From assembly GCA_016935075.1 (NCBI GenBank), contig JAFGRP010000052.1, forward strand, positions 1 to 40,994: a DNA stretch of 40,994 nt, written 5' to 3'. This DNA comes from Deltaproteobacteria bacterium (GTDB lineage Bacteria > Desulfobacterota > Syntrophia > Syntrophales > UBA5619). Positions 12,861 through 40,994 of the stretch are shown here, piece by piece (position 1 is the first letter of the stretch; each line of letters opens with the position of its first letter). The position numbers and the translations under genes are program-made. Under the pieces are notes generated by a model that saw only the letters and a list, made by a program, of their open reading frames with translations, made no database searches and had not been told where the DNA came from.

Positions 12861-14603
12861 ATGGTTGATGAGACAATTATTCCAAATTCCTTCAAACATA
12901 CCAATAGTTTTCGTCTGATGAGTCTTTACGGAGACAAAGCCGGCAGCGTGATGGAAAGGCTGCTCAAAATCATGAGAACCCATCTTGCCGCCTGTCCCGT
13001 AACGCACGTGAAGCGTTGGTCCGAACAAGATGTTATTCTGATAACCTACGCAGACAGCATTATTGATCCGGAGCAAACACCTCTGCAGGCGCTCTATCGA
13101 TTCATGAATACCTACCTGCGCGAGCAGTTCAGCGGAGTTCATGTGCTGCCCTTTTTCCCCTTCAGTTCCGACGACGGTTTTTCCGTGGTGGATTACCACC
13201 AGGTGGATCCCAGGCTGGGCAGCTGGGATGATATTGTCCAAATCGGCGATAATTTCGACTTGATGACCGACTTGGTGCTCAACCATGTGTCACGGCGGAG
13301 CTTATGGTTCAAGGATTTCATAGAAAACCAGGGCCGGAGAAAGGACTACTTCATCGAACTGGATCCTGACCAGGACGTTTCGATGGTGACACGCCCAAGG
13401 ACTCACAAGCTGGCTGTTCCGGTTGAAACGATGAGTGGATTGAAGCACGTCTGGGCGACTTTCAGCGGCGACCAGATCGATTTGAATTACACGAACCCCG
13501 ATGTTCTGCTGGAGATGATTGAAGTTCTGCTTTTCTATGTCCGAAAGGGCGCCCGATTTGTTCGCTTGGACGCCGTCGGTTTTCTCTGGAAATGCATCGG
13601 GACGACATGCATCAACCTTCAGGAAACCCACCAAGTCATAAGGATTTTCCGTGATGTTCTCGAAGTGGTTGCACCGCAGGTCGTGTTGATTTCGGAAACC
13701 AATGTCCCTGAAGGGGAGAACCTCAGTTATTTCGGTGACGGCCGCGAAGCGCACATGGTTTACCAGTTCAGCCTCCCGCCTCTGCTGCTTCACGCCCTGC
13801 AGAAGGGAACCTCCCGATATTTGCGGCAGTGGGCGGAAGCAATGCCCCCTACCCCGCCAGGATGCACGTATCTCAATTTCTCCACATCCCATGATGGTAT
13901 CGGGTTGCGGCCCGCAGCAGGCCTGTTGCCTGCCGAAGAGATTGCCGACCTGGTGGAGTCGATCAAGGGGTACGGTGGCCAAATCAGTATGAAAGCGGAC
14001 GGCACCGGCTCCACAAGCCCTTACGAAATCAACGTTTCTCTTTTTGATGCTTTGATGGGATTCAAGAAAGATCGCGACCAGTGGCAGATTCCCCGTTTCT
14101 TCTGCTCACAGATCATCAACCTTTCCTTAAAAGGCATCCCGGCGATCTACATCCACAGTCTGACCGCAACCCCCAATGATTTTAAAAAAGTGGAACAGAC
14201 CGGCGCCTCCAGGGCCATTAACCGCCATCAGTGGGATTACCGCCGTCTGAAGGATCTTATTACCAATCAACACACCCCAAATGGTGTGGTCTTTAGTGAA
14301 TTCCGCCGCCTGCTCCGGAACCGACGCTTCCAGATGGCCTTTCACCCGGAGGCCGATCAGGAGATCCTGGATCTCGGTGACGGTCTCTTCGGTGTCCGCA
14401 GAACCAGCCTGACCGGCAATCAGGTTATTTTCGCGGTCAGTAATGTTACCGACATCACCCAGGAACTCTTGCTCAATGACATTCAGAGTATCAAGCATTA
14501 CCAGTCCTTTTACGACCTGATCAGCCGCAGAGACATTGATGGTTCGCGGACAAGTCTGCGATTGCATCCCTATCAATCGGTGTGGCTGACGGTCATTACT
14601 TGA
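12861..14603 (+). CDS. GH13_18 sugar phosphorylase, probably glucosylglycerate phosphorylase (YcjM-like)
   Basis: HVLPFFPFSSDDGF, RLDAVGF nucleophile, ISETNVP acid/base, SHDGIG, PYEINV. Confidence 0.88.
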   Translation: MVDETIIPNSFKHTNSFRLMSLYGDKAGSVMERLLKIMRTHLAACPVTHVKRWSEQDVILITYADSIIDPEQTPLQALYRFMNTYLREQFSGVHVLPFFPFSSDDGFSVVDYHQVDPRLGSWDDIVQIGDNFDLMTDLVLNHVSRRSLWFKDFIENQGRRKDYFIELDPDQDVSMVTRPRTHKLAVPVETMSGLKHVWATFSGDQIDLNYTNPDVLLEMIEVLLFYVRKGARFVRLDAVGFLWKCIGTTCINLQETHQVIRIFRDVLEVVAPQVVLISETNVPEGENLSYFGDGREAHMVYQFSLPPLLLHALQKGTSRYLRQWAEAMPPTPPGCTYLNFSTSHDGIGLRPAAGLLPAEEIADLVESIKGYGGQISMKADGTGSTSPYEINVSLFDALMGFKKDRDQWQIPRFFCSQIINLSLKGIPAIYIHSLTATPNDFKKVEQTGASRAINRHQWDYRRLKDLITNQHTPNGVVFSEFRRLLRNRRFQMAFHPEADQEILDLGDGLFGVRRTSLTGNQVIFAVSNVTDITQELLLNDIQSIKHYQSFYDLISRRDIDGSRTSLRLHPYQSVWLTVIT

Positions 14604-33295: not shown

Positions 33296-35299
33296 CTACC
33301 CCTCGCCGCCCATCTCGAGCATCAGCTTCGTCAGGTCGCGGATCCGGTCCCGGAGCTCCGCCGCCCTCTCAAACTCCAGCGCCTTGGCGGCCTGCTTCAT
33401 CTCCTCTTTCAATTTCCGGATCACGACGGGAAGCTCCTTCTCGGAGGCATAGGCCGCGGCCTCTTCCGAGACCACCGGTACGGTCACATAATCGGCCTCA
33501 TAGACGGAGCCGAGGATCCGGCGGATCTCGGTCCTGATGGTCTCCGGCGTGATCCCGTGCTCCTCGTTGAATCGCGCCTGCATGAGCCGCCGCCGTTTTG
33601 TTTCGTCGAGACAGGCCCGGATCGCGGCGGTAATCGTATCGGCGTACATGATCACCTGCCCCGCGACGTTCCGCGCCGCCCGGCCGCTCGTCTGGATCAG
33701 TGAACGGGCGGAGCGGAGGAATCCCTCCTTGTCGGCGTCGAGGATCGCCACGAGGGAGACCTCGGGGATGTCGAGCCCCTCTCTGAGCAGGTTCACGCCG
33801 ATGAGGCAGTCGAACTCGCCCATCCTGAGGTCGCGGATGATCTCCACCCGTTCCAGGGTGTGGACGTCCGAATGGAGGTACTTCACCCGGACGCCCAGCT
33901 CTTCGTAGTATGCGGTCAGGTTCTCCGCCATCCGCTTCGTCAGCGTCGTCACCAGAACGCGCTCTCCCCGTTCGGCCCGTTCCCGGATCTCCGCCAGCAG
34001 GTCGTCCACCTGACCGGTGACCGGCTTCACGACGATCTCCGGGTCCATCAGGCCCGTCGGCCTGATGATCTGCTCCATGGCCCGGCCGCCGGCCCTTTCC
34101 AGTTCGTAGGCCGCGGGCGTCGCGGAGACGCAGATCCGCTGGTTCGGAAAGGCGTCGAACTCGTCGAAGCGGAGCGGCCGGTTGTCCAGCGCCGAGGGAA
34201 GGCGGAAGCCATAGTTGACCAGGGTCTCCTTCCGCGCGCGGTCGCCCCGGTACATCCCGATGAGCTGCGGGATTGTCGCGTGGCTCTCGTCGATAAAGAT
34301 GAGGGCGTCCTTGGGGAGATACTCCATCAGCGTCGGGGGCGGTTGGCCGGGCTTGCGGCCGGTCAGGTGACGGGAGTAGTTCTCGATGCCCGAGCAGTAA
34401 CCCATTTCCTCCATCATTTCGATATCGAAATGGGTCCGCTGCTCCAGGCGTTGCGCCTCGAGGAGCTTGTTTTCCGCGTTGAGCTCCCGGAGCCGCTCAC
34501 CCAGTTCCTCGCGGATCGCCAGGATCGCCCGTTTGAGGTTATCCTGAGTGGTCACGTAGTGGCTGCCGGGGTAGATCGCCGTCCGATGGAGCGACTCCAG
34601 TTTTTTCCCCCGGAGCGGATCGACAATCGAAATCGCCTCCACCGTGTCCCCAAACAACTCCACGCGGATCGCCTTCTCCTCCTCGTAGGGGGGAAAGATC
34701 TCAACGACGTCGCCGCGGACGCGGAAGGTCCCGCGGTGGAAATCGATGTCGTTGCGCTCGTACTGGATCTCGATGAGGCGCGCAAGCATCGCGTCCCTCT
34801 GGATCTCCATCCCCGATTCGAGCAGCAGCAGCATCCCCTGGTAGGCCTCCGGGGAGCCGAGGCCGTAGATGCAGGAGACGCTGGCCACGATAATCACGTC
34901 CCGCCGGTCCAGCAGGTAATGGGTCGCCGCGTGGCGGAGCTTGTCGATCTCCTCGTTGATCGCGGAGTCCTTTTCGATGTAGGTGTCGGTGCTGGGGATG
35001 TAGGCTTCAGGCTGGTAGTAGTCGTAATAGCTGACGAAGTAGGCGACGGCGTTTTCCGGAAAGAGGGCCTTGAACTCCCCGTAGAGCTGGGCGGCGAGGG
35101 TCTTGTTGTGGGCGATGACCAAGGCGGGCCGGTCCACGGCGGCGATCACGTTCGCCATCGTGAAGGTTTTCCCGGAACCGGTCACGCCGAGAAGGACCTG
35201 GTGCTGCTCCCCGTTCTCCAGCCCCTCGACGAGGCCGGCGATCGCCTGCGGCTGATCCCCCCGTGGCTGAAACTCGCTGACCAGCCGAAACCCGCCCAT
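33296..35299 (-). CDS. uvrB: excinuclease ABC subunit B
   Basis: [32 protein letters not shown]-terminal UVR domain. Confidence 0.97.
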
Positions 35300-35619
35300 G
35301 TTCGCTCCTCCCCGTGCGCTGTATCCTGCCACAATTTCCCTTCTCTGGCAAGCCGCCATAAAAACCCGGGGACACCATCCCGGTTTACAGGAACCGGTTC
35401 CTCACGGATAAGGGAAAGCTTTTCCCCCATGGTTCATTCTCATCTGAATCGGGAGTTTGGTACGATGGCGGCTTTGAAGGGAGGCGACGTTGAAAAGCGG
35501 TGCCCTTGCGGAAAAGGCACGTAGGATAGCGCAAGGATCGGCTTCATCGGCAATCGCATCTGTTGCATGGAAGGAGGGGCTGCGGTCTGTTCAGGATGGC
35601 GCAGCCCCTCCTCCGATTT

Positions 35620-36087
35620 TCAGCTTGCGATCGTCGTACAATCACCGGGCCCGTAACCGGTGCCGTTCTTGGGACCGTCTCCACCGTTTCCCGTGCCGTC
35701 GCCGGGACCGTGCCCCAAACCGCTGCCGGCGCCGTCCGCCGTGCCGCCGCCGCCCGCACCGCTGCCGCTGCCCGTGCCATCGCAGGAGCCGTCTCCGGAA
35801 CCGTTCCCGCCGGCTGCACCGCCATTGCCGGAACCGTTGCCTCCCCGGGCCAGGATGAAATGAACATCCGCACTGACGGCCGCACATTCACCGGGGCCGT
35901 AACCCGTACCATCCTTGGGACCGTTGCCACCATTGCCCGCACCGTTACCGGGGCCGTGCCCCGCTCCCTTGGCGAGAACGAAACGACCCTCCGCACTCAT
36001 GCCGGCTCCGTTCGAACTCCAGGCCGGAACAGTCAAAAGGAACAGAACCATGACTGAAAAACCGATCATCCACACACGCTTCATCAT
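35620..36087 (-). CDS. secreted glycine-rich protein with two 26-aa internal repeats
   Basis: GGGAGG RBS, Sec signal (MMKRVWMIGFSVMVLFLLTVPAWS), repeats GHGPG(N/D)G(A/T)GNGG(N/D)GPK(D/N)GTGYGPG(E/D)C; ECF-type promoter upstream. Confidence 0.8.
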   Translation of the reverse strand: MMKRVWMIGFSVMVLFLLTVPAWSSNGAGMSAEGRFVLAKGAGHGPGNGAGNGGNGPKDGTGYGPGECAAVSADVHFILARGGNGSGNGGAAGGNGSGDGSCDGTGSGSGAGGGGTADGAGSGLGHGPGDGTGNGGDGPKNGTGYGPGDCTTIAS

Positions 36088-36209
36088 CTTACCTCCCATC
36101 CGTAAATTGTTGTTTGCCGTTTCGACCATTTCCTCCTCCCTGGAAACCGGAGGATTCGCATCAGGTCCCCGCAGGCGGCATTGCCCATCAAGCCGCCTTT
36201 TATGCCTCT

Positions 36210-36237
36210 ACAACGCGCCGCCCGCGGAAAGGTTACA
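36210..36237 (-). promoter_or_regulatory. ECF sigma promoter (drives Gly-rich gene)
   Basis: TGTAACC (36237-36231), N15, CGTTGT. Confidence 0.75.
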
Positions 36238-36417
36238 GGACTTTTTCAGCCCCGGGACAAGGACTCGATTTACAGGGAGATTCTCTCCTGATACGTATTG
36301 CCGGACCATTATCGGATTTACTCGTGCGGACGATTCATATATACTTCCACATCCGGGAAATCCTATTGGGTCCGCTACCAATTTAAGGTTTCTGCGACTT
36401 TTTATGAAGGTGCCGCG

Positions 36418-36445
36418 TGTAACCTTATGGCCCGCACGCCGTTAT
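36418..36445 (+). promoter_or_regulatory. ECF sigma autoregulatory promoter
   Basis: TGTAACC (36418-36424), N15, CGTTAT. Confidence 0.75.
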
Positions 36446-36455
36446 AAGGGTGAGC

Positions 36456-36932
36456 ATGGGTGAATATTCGCTGTTTTATCGGGATTGCAAAAACAGGATC
36501 TTCAACTATCTGATGCGCTTGACGGGCGATTCCGGTTTGGCCGGAGACATCATGCAGGAGACCTTTGCGCGGCATATCGAACATTACGGACGGGATAACC
36601 GGGACATCGCCCTGCTCTACAGGATCGCCCGGAATCTCTTTACGGACGAATGGAGAAGACGAAAGCATTTTACGGCCGGAGAAATGGAAGGTGAAGAACC
36701 CTTCCTGGACCAGGAGCATCGTCTCATGGTCCGGTCCGAATACCGCCGGGTGCTCTCCGCCATGAAGTTGCTCGACGAGGACGAGCGGGAGATTCTGGCC
36801 CTTGCCGCAGGCGAAGATCTCTCCTACAGGGAGATCGCGGCCCTCGTCGGCATCAGCGAGGTCAACGTGAAGGTAAAGGTTCACCGGGCGCGCCTCAAAC
36901 TCAGGGAAAAACTCAAGGAGGGAGACGGATGA
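36456..36932 (+). CDS. ECF RNA polymerase sigma-70 family factor
   Basis: Region 2 (AGDIMQETF..LYRIARN) and region 4 (LSYREIAALVGISEVNVKVKVHRAR); start is ATG 36456 or GTG 36450. Confidence 0.93.
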   Translation: MGEYSLFYRDCKNRIFNYLMRLTGDSGLAGDIMQETFARHIEHYGRDNRDIALLYRIARNLFTDEWRRRKHFTAGEMEGEEPFLDQEHRLMVRSEYRRVLSAMKLLDEDEREILALAAGEDLSYREIAALVGISEVNVKVKVHRARLKLREKLKEGDG

Positions 36933-37489
36933 GTTCCCACATGATCAGCATGTTCATCGACGACGAATTGACCCTCGACGACAAGATTGATTTCGTAGAG
37001 ACCATCCATGAATCGAGACCGTTCAAGGAGGAAACGGTCGAACTCCTCCAACAGGAACGGCTGCTTCGATCCGATCCTGTCGATCGTTACCCGGCAGCGG
37101 AAATCAGACCGAAACGTTTGTTTCCCCTTCGTTTTCTCCGCCCTCTCGGACTTGTGACCGCCGGAGCGGCGCTGTCGCTGCTCATCCTGTTTTTTCCCTT
37201 CACCCCGGACAAGGCGCCCGACACCCCCTATCGTTTCATCCTCTACCGCCCCGACGTCAGCCGCGTCGATATCACGGGCAGTTTCACCGGCTGGAAGACG
37301 GTTCCCATGAAACGGGCGGGTTTGAGCGGTTACTGGGAATACACCTCCAACCTGCCGCGCGGAGAACACCGGTTCGCTTACATTCTCAACGGCGCGGTGC
37401 GGCTGCCCGACCCGACCATCCAGACGCGGGAGGGAGATGATTTCGGCAGCGAGAATACCGTCCTCTCCATCGGAGGAACGGCTCTATGA
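36929..37489 (+). CDS. putative anti-sigma factor: Cys-less ZAS-like N-terminus, one TM helix, C-terminal glycogen-binding-like (CBM48/AMPK1_CBM) domain
   Basis: ISMFIDDEL; TM LGLVTAGAALSLLILFFPF; VDITGSFTGW..PM..GYW..LPRGEHRFAYILNG..PDP..DDFGSEN; ATGA overlap with sigma gene. Confidence 0.82.
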   Translation: MSSHMISMFIDDELTLDDKIDFVETIHESRPFKEETVELLQQERLLRSDPVDRYPAAEIRPKRLFPLRFLRPLGLVTAGAALSLLILFFPFTPDKAPDTPYRFILYRPDVSRVDITGSFTGWKTVPMKRAGLSGYWEYTSNLPRGEHRFAYILNGAVRLPDPTIQTREGDDFGSENTVLSIGGTAL

Positions 37490-37812
37490 TGCCTCTTCTT
37501 GCACGGCTCCTGACGATCGCTTTTCTCATTACCGGATGTGCGGGCCATTCCTTCAGCAGGGAGGGCGGCCGGGTTCACCTCCGCCTGAGGGACGGACTTG
37601 CCCGTGAAGTTCTTTTCTTCTCCTCTCTGGAGGGCTTCGGGCTCCAAAGGGCGCAGAAAACGGACGAAACGACCTGGGAGGTGACCGTCCCGAACAGCAG
37701 AGAGTTTACCTACTTCTACATCGTTGACGGAAAAGTTCATCTCCCCGACTGTCGATACCGGGAGAAAGACGATTTCGGGGCATACAACTGTTTATACAAG
37801 CCCGACACGTAG
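37486..37812 (+). CDS. lipoprotein with divergent glycogen-binding-like domain
   Basis: Lipobox ITGC; WEVTVP..FTYFYIVDG..PDC..KDDFGAYN parallels the upstream CBM-like domain; ATGA overlap. Confidence 0.78.
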   Translation: MMPLLARLLTIAFLITGCAGHSFSREGGRVHLRLRDGLAREVLFFSSLEGFGLQRAQKTDETTWEVTVPNSREFTYFYIVDGKVHLPDCRYREKDDFGAYNCLYKPDT

Positions 37813-37837
37813 TGTTTCTGAACCGGACCGGAAATTT

Positions 37838-37865
37838 TGTAACCAGGACCCGTTTCTCACGTTTT
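37838..37865 (+). promoter_or_regulatory. ECF sigma promoter (drives 37896 gene)
   Basis: TGTAACC (37838-37844), N15, CGTTTT. Confidence 0.75.
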
Positions 37866-37895
37866 ATGAACAAAAGACCAAAAGGAGTCTGAACA

Positions 37896-38819
37896 ATGAA
37901 GCCGATCATCATCGCCTTTTCCATCCTGCTTGCGGTTGCGACAGCGGGCTTCGGGGCCGATTGGAGCAGCCGGCTGCCCGCCGGGACATCGGACGCCGTC
38001 AGAGCCCGCATCGCGGATGCAATTCGTGCCGGTGTCGATTCCGACGCGGCAGTCGCGCTGGCGCGTCGAATGGAGGAAAATCGATTCGGCGAAGACCACA
38101 AGGTGCGCGTGTATGAAATCATCATGGCGGCCCGGCAGGCAAATCTGCCGGTCAGTCCCATCGTCAACAAAGCCTATGAGGGGATGGCAAAAAGGGTGGA
38201 GACTGAAAAGATCGTTCAAGCCATGGAAGCCGTCCGATCCCGCTATTCCATCTCATTTCAACAGGCAAGAGCCTTGACCGCCGAGGAAAGGCAGCGGCGG
38301 GCGCTTGGACAAACCATCGCAGAGGGACTGGCCGCCGGGATCCTGGAAAGAGATCTGGCGCGCATAACAGAGAATGTCAGGAAACAGACCCGACAGTTCG
38401 ATCGTGAACAGGCAAACTCGATTTCGCTGCTCTCTTTTCAGGTTGCCCGCGATATGGCAAGGTTCGGCGTCCTTTCGGGAACCTTGACGGACGTCATCTG
38501 CGGGGCCCTGCAAAACCGTTTTACGGCGCGCGAGATGGAGCGGATGCGAAACAGTTTCATCAACGAAGCCCGATACGGAAAGGCGGAAACCATTGCCCTG
38601 CAATTCGGCGCTCAGATCGGGGCCGGCTCCCGGGCAGAGGGGCTCGGATCAGGCGGAGCCGGAGCGGGGTCGGGGACCGAAGGCAGAGGAAACAGCGCCG
38701 GCGGAAGGGGCGACAACGGCAGTGACAGCGGCAGCGGCGGCAGCGGTGGCAGTGACAGCGGCAGCGGCGGCAGCGGTGGCAGTGGCGGCAGCGGCGGCAG
38801 CGGCGGCAGCGGAAGATAG
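37896..38819 (+). CDS. secreted alpha-helical hypothetical protein with Gly/Ser-rich tail
   Basis: AAGGAG RBS, Sec signal ending GFG-A, helical body, C-terminal GGS repeats. Confidence 0.82.
   Translation: MKPIIIAFSILLAVATAGFGADWSSRLPAGTSDAVRARIADAIRAGVDSDAAVALARRMEENRFGEDHKVRVYEIIMAARQANLPVSPIVNKAYEGMAKRVETEKIVQAMEAVRSRYSISFQQARALTAEERQRRALGQTIAEGLAAGILERDLARITENVRKQTRQFDREQANSISLLSFQVARDMARFGVLSGTLTDVICGALQNRFTAREMERMRNSFINEARYGKAETIALQFGAQIGAGSRAEGLGSGGAGAGSGTEGRGNSAGGRGDNGSDSGSGGSGGSDSGSGGSGGSGGSGGSGGSGR
38718..38810 (+). repeat. coding tandem repeats (2 x 30 bp, then 9-bp GGCGGCAGC units)
   Basis: GGCAGTGACAGCGGCAGCGGCGGCAGCGGT at 38718-38747 and 38748-38777, then GGCAGT and (GGCGGCAGC)3. 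Confidence 0.9.
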
Positions 38820-38970
38820 CCGTTCCTTTTGCCCCTTCAGCCAATGATCCTCTCGTCTCCGCCGCCGTCGGAGTCCGCCTTTGATCGATCCCGGCCCGGA
38901 AAGACGCGCATCCAAGGCGGGCGGCGATGCACATAAAAGCGGAAACGAGAACTCCCGAACCAAAATCCTC

Positions 38971-38999
38971 TTGACACACGGAACCGTTCTTCATATACT
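38971..38999 (+). promoter_or_regulatory. sigma70 promoter for protease gene
   Basis: TTGACA, 17 nt, TATACT. Confidence 0.7.
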
Positions 39000-39132
39000 C
39001 CCATCTGTGAAAAAGCGCTGTCTAATCAATAGAATGAACCTCCCCGCCACCATTGGAAGATTTGCCTGCCGTCTATTGACCGCGGCCCCTGCCCTGATCA
39101 TGGGCGCATCCCTTCAACCCGGAGAACCGTTT

Positions 39133-40994
39133 ATGAACCCGTCCCCCAAATCCCTGTCGGCCCAATGGCATATCCGCAATGGGGCCGCTTTCATATTGAT
39201 GTTGCTTCTCCTATTCAGCGCCCCTCCCCTGCACGCGCAGTTCTTCCGGGTGGTTCCCGATCGGGCAGAATCCCTCACCCGGCCCATTCGCGCCGGTCAC
39301 GATGCGTCGTCCCTCAAGCGGCGGCACGCCGGCGCATCTCCGAAACCGTTCTCGATTGCGATTCCCGCGCCCTCTCAGGGAAAAAGAGCCGCTGAAACCG
39401 CCGCCGTTTCTCTCCCGGGCACGCCGCATAGAATCGGCTTCGGCCGCGATGTCCCCCAACTGGGCAGCGCTGCGGATACGGCAGCCTGCCTTCAGTGGCA
39501 GAGCACCCCCCAAGCCGGCATGATCACGGCAATCAGCATCAGATCTCCGGAGGCTGTCGGCATCCGCCTGGGCATCCTGGTCCGCCGCCTGCCCGCCGAG
39601 GCCGTTGTGCGCTTCTATGCCCGGGGGGCGGAGGCCGCCTACGAAATCTCCGGCAGGGAAATGATGGAGTCCGTCCGGCGGAATCTGGAGGCGGGCGATG
39701 GCGGCGACGCCGCCCGTACCTGCTGGTCGCCCCATATCGACGGCGAGGAGGCAACCCTGGAAATCGAGCTGCCCCCGGGGATCGGCCCGGATAAGGTGGA
39801 AATCTCCATTCCCCGGGTTTCCCATTTTTTTCAACCCCCCCTGGCCGCACAGGGGGAAAACATCATTCACCAAACCGGAATAGGAGCTGCGGCCTCCTGT
39901 GAAATCGATGCCACCTGCTACTACGGCGTCTGGAGTCCCGCAAGCAACGCCACGGCGAGAATGATTTTTGTCGAAACGGACGGCCACAGTTATCTGTGTA
40001 CCGGGACACTGCTCAATGATACGGCATCGAGCGGAACGCCCTACTTCCTCAGCGCCCAGCACTGCATTTCACAGCAGGCTGTGGCATCGACGCTGCAGAC
40101 CTACTGGTTCTACCGATCCGCGTCCTGCAACAGCGGCACCCTCAATCCGGGAAGCACGACGCTGACCGGGGGTGCGGCGCTGCTGTATTCCGATTTGGAC
40201 ACCGACACATCCTTCATGAGATTGATCAATACCCCGCCCGCGGGGGCTACTTATATAGGATGGGACTCCAATGCGCCGGCGCTGGGAACCGCGGTGGCGG
40301 ACATTCATCATCCGAAAGGCGATTTGCAGAAAATCAGTTTCGGAACCATTCAATCGTATCAGGATTGCACCGCCACCGACCCGTCGGGTACCTTCACGTG
40401 CAGCGATGCGACGCAGACAAACGCGGAATATCTCGATGTGACGTTCACCATCGGCATCACGGAGGGCGGCAGCAGCGGCTCTGGGTTGTTCACGGCCAGT
40501 GGCGGGAGTCATTACCTGATCGGCCAGCTGCGCGGGGGAGACACGAGCTGCAGCAATCCGAACGGATCGAATTCCTACGGCCGGTTCGATATGGCCTATA
40601 ACACCGCGCTGTATCAATGGCTGAGCGTCGGTTCGACATCACCCCTCTACTTTCCCCACATAGCCACCAGCGCTCCCTGGCAAACGGAAATCGCCATCAT
40701 CAATACGGGCGATCAAAGCGTCACCGGTACGCTGAAAGCCTATAGCAACGCCGGCGGACAGCCCGTCGATACCGAGCCGGTCACGCTTGTCGCCCACGGC
40801 CGGAGACAGATCATCGTTGCCAATGAATTTACAAACCACACAAACATTGGCTATATCATCTTTAATGCAAATTCCGATGCGGTCCAGGGCTATACGAAGT
40901 TTTACAGAGAAGGGTACTATAGGGCGGCAATCCCCGCGGTCAAAGAGGTAAACACCTCGAACATCTATATCCCGCACATCGCCTCAACCGCGGA
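39133..40994 (+). CDS. secreted trypsin-like S1 protease, lysyl-endopeptidase-like, with propeptide and C-terminal repeat domains (partial; runs off window, absent from ORF track)
   Basis: Hand translation open to the window end: signal peptide (..PPLHA-Q), CTGTLLND..PYFLSAQHC (His), TDTSF (Asp), IHHPKGD, TEGGSSGSGLF (Ser), then LYFPHIA..WQTEIAIIN and IYIPHIA. Confidence 0.9.
   Translation, partial: MNPSPKSLSAQWHIRNGAAFILMLLLLFSAPPLHAQFFRVVPDRAESLTRPIRAGHDASSLKRRHAGASPKPFSIAIPAPSQGKRAAETAAVSLPGTPHRIGFGRDVPQLGSAADTAACLQWQSTPQAGMITAISIRSPEAVGIRLGILVRRLPAEAVVRFYARGAEAAYEISGREMMESVRRNLEAGDGGDAARTCWSPHIDGEEATLEIELPPGIGPDKVEISIPRVSHFFQPPLAAQGENIIHQTGIGAAASCEIDATCYYGVWSPASNATARMIFVETDGHSYLCTGTLLNDTASSGTPYFLSAQHCISQQAVASTLQTYWFYRSASCNSGTLNPGSTTLTGGAALLYSDLDTDTSFMRLINTPPAGATYIGWDSNAPALGTAVADIHHPKGDLQKISFGTIQSYQDCTATDPSGTFTCSDATQTNAEYLDVTFTIGITEGGSSGSGLFTASGGSHYLIGQLRGGDTSCSNPNGSNSYGRFDMAYNTALYQWLSVGSTSPLYFPHIATSAPWQTEIAIINTGDQSVTGTLKAYSNAGGQPVDTEPVTLVAHGRRQIIVANEFTNHTNIGYIIFNANSDAVQGYTKFYREGYYRAAIPAVKEVNTSNIYIPHIASTA

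Follow-up and report, generated by a model that had tools for sequence, protein, structure and literature searches.

The window analysed here is a stretch of 40,994 nucleotides from a deltaproteobacterium of the Syntrophales (assembly GCA_016935075.1, contig JAFGRP010000052.1). Between uvrB and a gene for a Trypsin_2-type protease, positions 35620-38819 of the window carry five genes, encoding an extracytoplasmic function (ECF) sigma factor, an anti-sigma factor, a lipoprotein and two proteins with predicted signal peptides, here called glyA and glyB. We consider it probable that this locus is a self-contained, autoregulated ECF signalling cassette of the Desulfobacterota, with the mechanism and the type of ligand proposed below. 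The cassette is defined by a gene set that recurs across the phylum, by one promoter motif in front of each of its transcription units, and by an anti-sigma factor whose extracytoplasmic domain belongs to a family of sugar-binding modules.

To delimit the unit, we scanned one genome per species and recovered a relative of the anti-sigma factor in 362 of 185,579 genomes; the locus counts given throughout refer to the best 80 of these 362. The sigma gene is present in 80/80 loci and adjoins the anti-sigma gene in all of them. The lipoprotein gene was found in 78 loci, both exceptions ending at a contig edge, and glyB in 73; of the seven loci without glyB, six stop at a contig edge and one (L016) truly lacks the gene. 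Any other family of open reading frames (ORFs) is shared by 9 of the 80 loci at most. Since these four genes are kept and their neighbours do not recur, the unit of sigma, anti-sigma, lipoprotein and glyB either moves or is retained as a cassette while its surroundings change. The neighbourhood check called for in a preliminary description of this DNA thus bears out the co-occurrence of the genes elsewhere, with a glyA-type motif in 15 of the 80 loci. Both the four-gene set and the promoter were also found in three divergent members taken from whole genomes. A search of a protein collection returned 234 full-length relatives of the anti-sigma factor (~186 aa) at E≤1e-3, and those that are named are called "glycogen-binding domain-containing protein" and come from Syntrophales or Desulfobacterales.

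The cassette loci fall in Syntrophales, Desulfobacterales, Desulfatiglandales, Desulfobulbales and other groups. Judging by their names, relatives are present in isolates of the Desulfobacterales and Desulfobulbales. Those of one distant member are named from Desulfobulbus, Desulforhopalus and a further genome, where the protein goes by "hypothetical 5-AMP-activated protein kinase, beta-1 subunit". Among 400 genomes sampled evenly over the phylum, 10 have the cassette, in one copy each, and it is present in 0 of 13 listed genomes of the window's own order; the distribution is therefore patchy though widespread. Three loci (L008, L034, L047) lie on short contigs in bins labelled Treponemataceae, Fibrobacteraceae and Bacteroidales. 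For these, mis-binning seems likelier than transfer, because the contigs span 1-6 kb and show 49-67% identity to the Desulfobacterota copies. One metatranscriptome library contains contigs that are 90-97% like parts of the locus, covering 35764-36170 (glyA), 36836-37228 (the sigma/anti-sigma junction), and 37860-38174 and 38437-38587 (glyB). These contigs belong to a relative, and with DNA carry-over possible they are a weak hint that such a cassette is transcribed. Two RNA runs (X11 and X12) gave two and one short pieces, respectively, at 90-95% likeness, which have no bearing on expression.

The 41-kb window contains three copies of the motif TGTAACC-N15-CGTT, one ahead of each transcription unit, against 0.02 expected occurrences, and 0 of 100 shuffles attained three sites. 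The single motif common to all three units, as first described, is therefore confirmed. The consensus of 149 sites, collected with a tolerance of one mismatch in TGTAACC, reads TGTAACCTTTt-N11-CGTTata, which may also be written TGTAACCTTT-N12-CGTTata. A matrix built from these 149 sites scores the window sites at 24.0-25.4 bits, and the next best site in the 2.87-Mb genome reaches 15.2. Because the matrix finds only these three sites genome-wide, the regulon is predicted to be tiny, with about three promoters. When the whole assembly was searched with a looser motif, two additional places were returned, compared with three for a reversed control. Both additional places were judged to be chance occurrences: the spacing is 17 at C188:16074, C247:158 falls within a coding sequence and is not followed by a gene, and neither scores above the 14-bit listing floor of the matrix scan. 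In ten other cassette genomes, exact sites number 0-3 per genome and lie mainly at the cassette.

Among the 80 loci, a site lies ahead of sigma in 76; of the remaining four, two lack sequence upstream and one contains a run of N. This placement predicts autoregulation, as the preliminary description had suggested. In the window, the site has the AAC in its -35 element and the CGT in its -10 element that mark autoregulatory ECF promoters, and stands 12 nt before ATG 36456, which comparison with orthologues identifies as the most likely sigma start. In most loci, CGTT and the sigma start are 10-13 nt apart (with ATG 36456 as the start, 12 nt in the window, at 36443-36458; the corresponding place was compared in L007-L085), leaving no room for a Shine-Dalgarno sequence, so the sigma operon may be transcribed with little or no leader. 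A second site stands directly behind the lipoprotein stop, before glyB, in 36/80 loci, and further places are occupied in 43/80. In many loci (L018, L019, L021, L024, L031, L040 and others), the TAA within the -35 TGTAACC is itself the lipoprotein stop codon (...ATG TAA CC), which makes the operon end and the glyB promoter overlap; in the window, the two are 26 nt apart.

The sigma protein has the two-region layout of an ECF factor (160 aa; Pfam Sigma70_r2, E 2.5e-10, and r4_2, E 1.3e-14). It scores 83.7 bits against the NCBIfam sigma70-ECF model, whose cut-off is 42.9, and reaches no equivalog cut-off. Its nearest solved chains are SigE, SigL, SigW and CnrH (E 5e-9 to 7e-7; CnrH chain 4cxf, 6.6e-7). 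A cognate anti-sigma gene that adjoins sigma and is transcribed with it is a further hallmark of ECF factors; here the predicted cognate gene overlaps sigma by ATGA in the window and adjoins it in every locus. Overlaps of this type, 4 nt each, join sigma to anti-sigma and anti-sigma to the lipoprotein, in agreement with the translational coupling of the trio claimed at the outset.

The N-terminus of the anti-sigma factor is strongly conserved (ISMFIDDEL.LDDKIEFVE.VH) and is modelled with helices at residues 2-10, 16-26 and 30-48 (predicted local distance difference test, pLDDT, 57-81). It had been described as resembling zinc-binding anti-sigma (ZAS) domains without their cysteines, which holds for most of the family: 69/80 anti-sigmas have no Cys in their first 60 residues and with it lack the zinc-ligand pattern H-x3-C-x2-C. 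His27, at the place of the ZAS histidine, is kept in 75/80. Searches with 24 N-termini gave weak zf-HC2 matches for 10 (best E 0.0052; none for the window's own) and one weak RseA_N match (E 0.14). The weak zf-HC2 matches suggest that this region may be a Cys-less relative of the zinc-finger anti-sigma domain. A transmembrane (TM) helix is predicted at residues 74-88 of the model, with five Arg/Lys residues before it and a +2/-2 charge balance after it. Because positive-inside charges flank the helix, the N-terminus is predicted to be cytoplasmic and the C-terminal beta-sandwich periplasmic.

That beta-sandwich matches the Pfam family AMPK1_CBM over residues 106-181 (E 7.4e-10; 39.3 bits versus a cut-off of 26.8), upholding the periplasmic CBM48-like sensor of the preliminary description. 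At E≤0.1, the Pfam scan of the anti-sigma factor returned no family besides carbohydrate-binding modules (CBMs). The family profile matches the CBM chain 1z0n of AMP-activated protein kinase (AMPK) beta1 with E 2.9e-7. The AlphaFold model of the sensor has pLDDT >90 over residues 100-180 and, by Foldseek, superposes on 1z0m at 1.7-1.9 Å over ~83 residues (TM-score 0.85-0.87), as expected of a CBM48 fold. HMMER pairs AMPK beta1 Trp100, Lys126, Trp133, Leu146 and Asn150 with Trp122, Ala150, Val157, Phe172 and Asn176 of the sensor, respectively. Trp122 and Asn176 are kept in 80/80 anti-sigmas and Phe172 in 79/80, and the equivalent of Gly147 is also kept. The family has conserved residues of its own, namely Tyr135, Asp170 and Asp171 (80/80), Trp136 (78/80) and Glu175 (76/80). 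Position 150 is Ser, Thr, Cys or Ala and Lys in 0/80, and position 157 is Trp in 1/80, leaving the full AMPK beta1 contact set (Trp100, Lys126, Trp133, Leu146 and Asn150) incomplete. All five residues of that set contact carbohydrate in AMPK beta1. Judged by alignment, the site has part of its surface kept under strict selection, new invariants added and two key contacts lost.

These substitutions bear on whether the sensor is a classical alpha-glucan sensor, in which the periplasmic domain would bind an alpha-1,4-glucan of the glycogen or maltodextrin kind and thereby switch sigma on or off. In favour of this reading, the domain has the fold of glycogen- and starch-binding modules and belongs to their family, and the equivalents of Trp100, Leu146, Gly147 and Asn150 are kept. 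Beyond anti-sigmas, the closest relatives of the sensor in an exhaustive search are tandem arrays of up to 18 AMPK1_CBM/CBM48 modules. Among 20 such proteins examined, four have a glycoside hydrolase family 13 (GH13) catalytic domain and three have tetratricopeptide repeats (TPRs). Their modules share DDG[FY]GG.NS and G.W with the sensor, yet keep the Lys (YKF) and the second Trp (DGxW). The sensor thus descends from true extracytoplasmic glucan-binding modules. Individual tandem-module proteins (P0121, 1812 aa; P0122, P0148, P0167, P0194, P0221 and P0235) have 4-18 modules, some together with GH13 alpha-amylase/pullulanase domains or TPRs. In the isolated AMPK beta1 CBM, glycogen binding is lost with W100G or K126Q and reduced with W133L, according to the account in a review (PMC6274970), and it is the equivalents of Lys126 and Trp133 that are missing here, in 80/80 and 79/80 anti-sigmas, whereas the amylase-linked repeats keep both. 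Moreover, the lipoprotein copy of the fold also lacks the Trp100 equivalent, genes of glucan metabolism do not recur next to the cassette, and the targets behind its promoter do not encode carbohydrate-active enzymes. We therefore regard a classical alpha-glucan sensor as unlikely; the sensor probably no longer binds such a glucan. The alpha-glucan sensing first proposed is weakened to this extent, with the retained Trp100 and Asn150 equivalents remaining in its favour.

The lipoprotein carries the lipobox L-I-T-G-C at residues 14-18, predicting lipidation, and Cys18, Cys89 and Cys102 are invariant in 29 sequences. Pfam assigns no family to it, to glyA or to glyB. Aligned with hhalign against the anti-sigma profile, it matches over 74 columns with a probability of 98.5% and E 3.7e-15. 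The Trp of GSFTGW is replaced by Phe or Tyr, and the E.DDFG..N motif is present. Both results agree with the earlier view of the lipoprotein as a second, diverged copy of the fold without the Trp of GSF..W. A predicted complex of anti-sigma residues 96-186 with the mature lipoprotein scored 0.01 against a mark of 0.32, which neither supports nor contradicts contact.

A paralogous pair with a common E.DDFG..N motif is also what a protein-partner or feedback sensor might use, and this reading has in our judgement a minor chance of being correct. The two sandwiches would then bind each other or the secreted Gly-rich products, monitoring export or accumulation of the module's own outputs. CpxP, which feeds back on Cpx, and RseB, which guards RseA, provide models for such a circuit, and induction of a helical inhibitor or chaperone in the periplasm is frequent among envelope-stress systems. 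The very small regulon is made up of genes next to the module itself, and glyB, at 73/80 loci, is a core member of the cassette. However, the conserved surface of the sensor coincides in part with the canonical sugar site, and a ligand that is small or polymeric would explain this just as well.

The two flanking genes had both been described as encoding secreted Gly-rich proteins, which holds for glyA. Its product is 31% Gly and contains two copies of GHGPG(D/N)G(T/A)GNGG(D/N)GPK(D/N)GTGYGPG(E/D)C. The most likely start is ATG 36087, which has GGGAGG 5 nt ahead, rather than the 36129 of the ORF lister (169 aa). No Pfam or NCBIfam family matches glyA, and an Atlas search returned nothing above 0.87. 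Proteins with a glyA-type C-terminal motif, G(H/Y)GPGDGTGN.G.GPQDGTG(Y/F)G, account for the 15 loci mentioned above. Other proteins behind the third promoter site have His/Gln-rich tails (L017, L029, L038, L062) or Thr/Gln-rich tails, and L014 and L015 encode a different secreted repeat protein. The place of this fifth gene varies as well, being divergent upstream (the window, L007, L013) or downstream of glyB. By these comparisons, the fifth gene is a class rather than one family. A signal-peptide-like ORF containing ≥15% Gly lies within 200 nt downstream of 22 of 40 additional promoter sites in 37 loci, versus 40 of 3000 random positions; the signal-peptide rule is crude and missed several clear Gly-rich cases. 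The leaders of glyA-type genes are ~85-130 nt long, often 122-128 nt (36088-36211 on the minus strand in the window, with matching leaders in ~25 loci). RNAalifold found 0 pairs in nine of these leaders, which gives no sign of a conserved leader structure; an Rfam scan of 35400-39100 gave nothing at E≤1.

For glyB, the description as Gly-rich applies to the end of the protein only. Its model (pLDDT 86.2) comprises 13 helices, most of the protein being a helical-repeat domain at residues ~30-245, and the Gly/Ser tail, with pLDDT <50, is limited to the last ~55-60 residues. Tails of glyB orthologues range from ~40 to 170 residues, and nearly all of the 29 aligned end in basic residues (R, K, HK, RK, NK; the window tail is encoded at 38640-38816). 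A Foldseek search against the Protein Data Bank (PDB) gave no match to glyB at E≤1e-3, and an Atlas search found only hypothetical proteins of the Thermodesulfobacteriota. A wide fold search recovered only designed helical repeats, the best with a Z of 9.5, within the range common for helical repeats.

A putative accessory output is encoded beyond the cassette genes. In each of two genomes from different families, an unlinked promoter site stands ahead of a gene for a secreted DUF2202 protein (E 6.8e-32 and 5.9e-44), and these two are the sole DUF2202 genes in ten cassette genomes searched. In 3/80 loci, a DUF2202 gene directly follows the cassette. Among solved chains, the uncharacterised MJ0754 is the closest to DUF2202. 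A preprint (bioRxiv 10.1101/2020.01.10.902569) describes DUF2202 as ferritin-like and as part of ferrosome gene clusters. This link, together with the near-invariant Asp170, Asp171 and Glu175 and the His/Gln-rich tails of some third-site proteins, would fit a metal or mineral stress module, in which the acidic DD..E patch would sense a cation or a mineral surface, with outputs that bind metal or template it. We hold such a module to be improbable. DUF2202 is linked to the module in only five instances, and none was found in the window's own genome, which is 90.7% complete. Neither the sensor nor glyB has a His/Cys cluster, and no metal transporter recurs nearby. A related proposal, that a starch-binding fold has been repurposed so that sensor and lipoprotein read a mineral- or metal-related envelope signal and switch on an iron- or mineral-handling layer, is improbable in our estimate. 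Such a layer would consist of disordered Gly/Asp/His-rich proteins, the helical-repeat scaffold and, where present, secreted DUF2202.

The coordinates of the locus and its neighbours are collected below. Relatives of the Trypsin_2 protease and uvrB occur in 0/80 loci, and neither gene was retained as a member of the module; the protease gene has its own near-consensus sigma-70 promoter, TTGACA-17-TATACT at 38971-38999. A GH13 alpha-amylase-family gene lies at 12861-14603 on the plus strand, 22 kb off and amid housekeeping genes, with no link to the module seen.

Table 1. Features of the ECF cassette and its neighbours in the window, and DUF2202 genes associated with the module in other genomes.
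Feature	Position	Strand	Description
uvrB	33296-35359	-	neighbour on the glyA side
glyA	35620-36087	-	secreted Gly-rich protein, 155 aa from ATG 36087; signal peptide
glyA promoter	36212-36237	-	ECF-type, TGTAACC-N15-CGTT; matrix 24.8 bits
Sigma operon promoter	36418-36443	+	ECF-type, predicted autoregulatory; matrix 25.4 bits
ECF sigma factor	36450-36932	+	160 aa from GTG 36450; probably 158 aa from ATG 36456
Anti-sigma factor	36929-37489	+	186 aa; N-terminus 1-48, predicted TM ~74-88, AMPK1_CBM/CBM48 ~99-181
Lipoprotein	37486-37812	+	108 aa, lipobox ITGC; mature part a diverged paralogue of the anti-sigma CBM48-like domain
glyB promoter	37838-37863	+	ECF-type; matrix 24.0 bits
glyB	37896-38819	+	secreted, 307 aa; signal peptide, helical repeat ~30-245, disordered Gly/Ser tail
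Trypsin_2 protein	38881-40992	+	large, secreted; Trypsin_2 domain at E 2.1e-7; runs off the window
DUF2202 with module promoter (L089)	G338:C4:169655-170400		
DUF2202 with module promoter (L090)	G209:C14:28626-29312		
DUF2202 directly after cassette	L023 5570-6133		
DUF2202 directly after cassette	L029 6878-7513		
DUF2202 directly after cassette	L085 6959-7501		

The locus had been put forward as an undescribed system, which does not hold for the layout of its sigma/anti-sigma pair. The entry for ECF278s1 in the supplement of the ECF classification (Casas-Pastor et al. 2021, PMC7826278) describes, in Desulfovibrio and Syntrophobacter, a one-helix anti-sigma factor at position +1 with a periplasmic AMPK glycogen-recognition domain. 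The text of that entry proposes glycogen sensing, a point in favour of an alpha-glucan ligand, and reads the conserved ECF278 promoter as a sign of autoregulation. It has no paragraph on genomic context and lists zero studied members, in line with the earlier statement that no characterised example is known. By description, the present family shares with ECF278s1 the +1 anti-sigma factor, the single TM helix, the periplasmic AMPK-type domain and the deltaproteobacterial hosts. In contrast, the promoter given for ECF278 is GTGAC/GTATA, which is not the GTAACC/CGTTata found here, where the -10 element is also the longer one; at the -35 position that differs, none of the 149 sites has G, and A has a frequency of 0.99. 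The promoter motifs are similar, and a sister subgroup is therefore possible. On the strength of the description, we would place the family either in ECF278s1 or in a sister group. ECF231, which has the same -35 word TGTAACCTT, was rejected as a match, as it is a Bacteroidetes group with a HEAT-repeat anti-sigma factor. A literature search for anti-sigma factors with an AMPK1_CBM or glycogen-binding architecture, and for ECF278, found no paper; further groups in the ECF supplement may have been missed by it. Among papers that combine CBM48 with anti-sigma factors, those listed concern cellulosomes or other topics, judging by title and abstract. The sigma/anti-sigma layout is thus known, and what is new relative to the text of the ECF278s1 entry is the paralogous lipoprotein, the helical-repeat and Gly-rich outputs (glyB and glyA), the three-promoter regulon and the occasional DUF2202 target.

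Of systems with a similar outline, SigI/RsgI of Clostridium thermocellum is the best studied, yet it is unrelated. As described (PMC10328401, PMC6582324, PMC6852018), it has a membrane anti-sigma factor with an outside CBM that senses polysaccharides, and signals by proteolysis; its outputs are cellulosomal enzymes, in a Gram-positive and with no lipoprotein partner, whereas those of the present cassette are Gly-rich secreted proteins. Its sigma factor is of the SigI type, whereas the present sigma matches ECF models only, and the RsgI N-domain and autoproteolytic periplasmic domain have no Pfam match here. The AMPK beta CBM (1z0m, 1z0n, 4yef) has the same fold, the same Pfam family and the equivalents of Trp100, Leu146, Gly147 and Asn150, but the sensor differs from it in being periplasmic and fused to an anti-sigma factor, in having its own invariants, and in lacking the Lys126 and Trp133 equivalents. 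E. coli RpoE/RseA/RseB comprises a sigma factor, a one-helix anti-sigma factor and a periplasmic accessory protein, and is autoregulated, with the sigma released by regulated proteolysis. The operon order of sigma, anti-sigma and accessory gene is alike, whereas the folds of RseA and RseB are unrelated and the RpoE regulon is large compared with the three promoters found here. CnrH/CnrY/CnrX of Cupriavidus metallidurans is likewise an ECF module of three proteins, one of them a dedicated periplasmic sensor, and its regulon is local and very small. It differs in having no CBM fold: CnrX is a helical metal sensor, CnrY a tiny anti-sigma factor, and the output an efflux pump.

We propose that in the resting state the anti-sigma factor would hold sigma at the membrane. 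A periplasmic signal, read by both beta-sandwiches, would inactivate the anti-sigma factor, most likely by regulated proteolysis as for other one-helix anti-sigmas, and the freed sigma would raise expression of its own operon and of the secreted outputs. The lipoprotein may sense the signal alongside the anti-sigma factor or modulate its response, much as RseB does for RseA. The ligand would be a glycan-like or other envelope polymer, with specificity shifted from the classical alpha-1,4-glucan, because the sugar site is partly kept under strict selection with two key residues gone, and because the outputs are unrelated to glucan metabolism. The output proteins would probably build or protect an extracytoplasmic layer.

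Several points weigh against this proposal. The N-terminus of the window's anti-sigma factor matched no Pfam anti-sigma family, and its profile found no solved anti-sigma factor in the PDB. The putative role of the lipoprotein derives from its position and paralogy only, and the nearest relatives of the sensor outside anti-sigmas are the tandem glucan-module arrays. With respect to the regulon, the core of the promoter matrix is circular, having been trained on core-motif picks, which makes only the flanks TTT and ATA independent, and the host genome is 90.7% complete, so that a further target may lie in its unassembled part.

ECF sigma factors are among the commonest signalling devices of bacteria, and most catalogued groups have no known signal or output. 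Against this background, a portable cassette of four to five genes with a regulon of about three promoters is a cleanly defined module. Its sensor, a well-understood sugar-binding fold minus two key residues, offers a good case for the change of a CBM from binding to signalling. The outputs have no known relatives and occur in sulfate reducers and syntrophs that shape anoxic sediments. The ferritin-like link, if true, would lead to an unstudied extracytoplasmic metal-handling function in these organisms.

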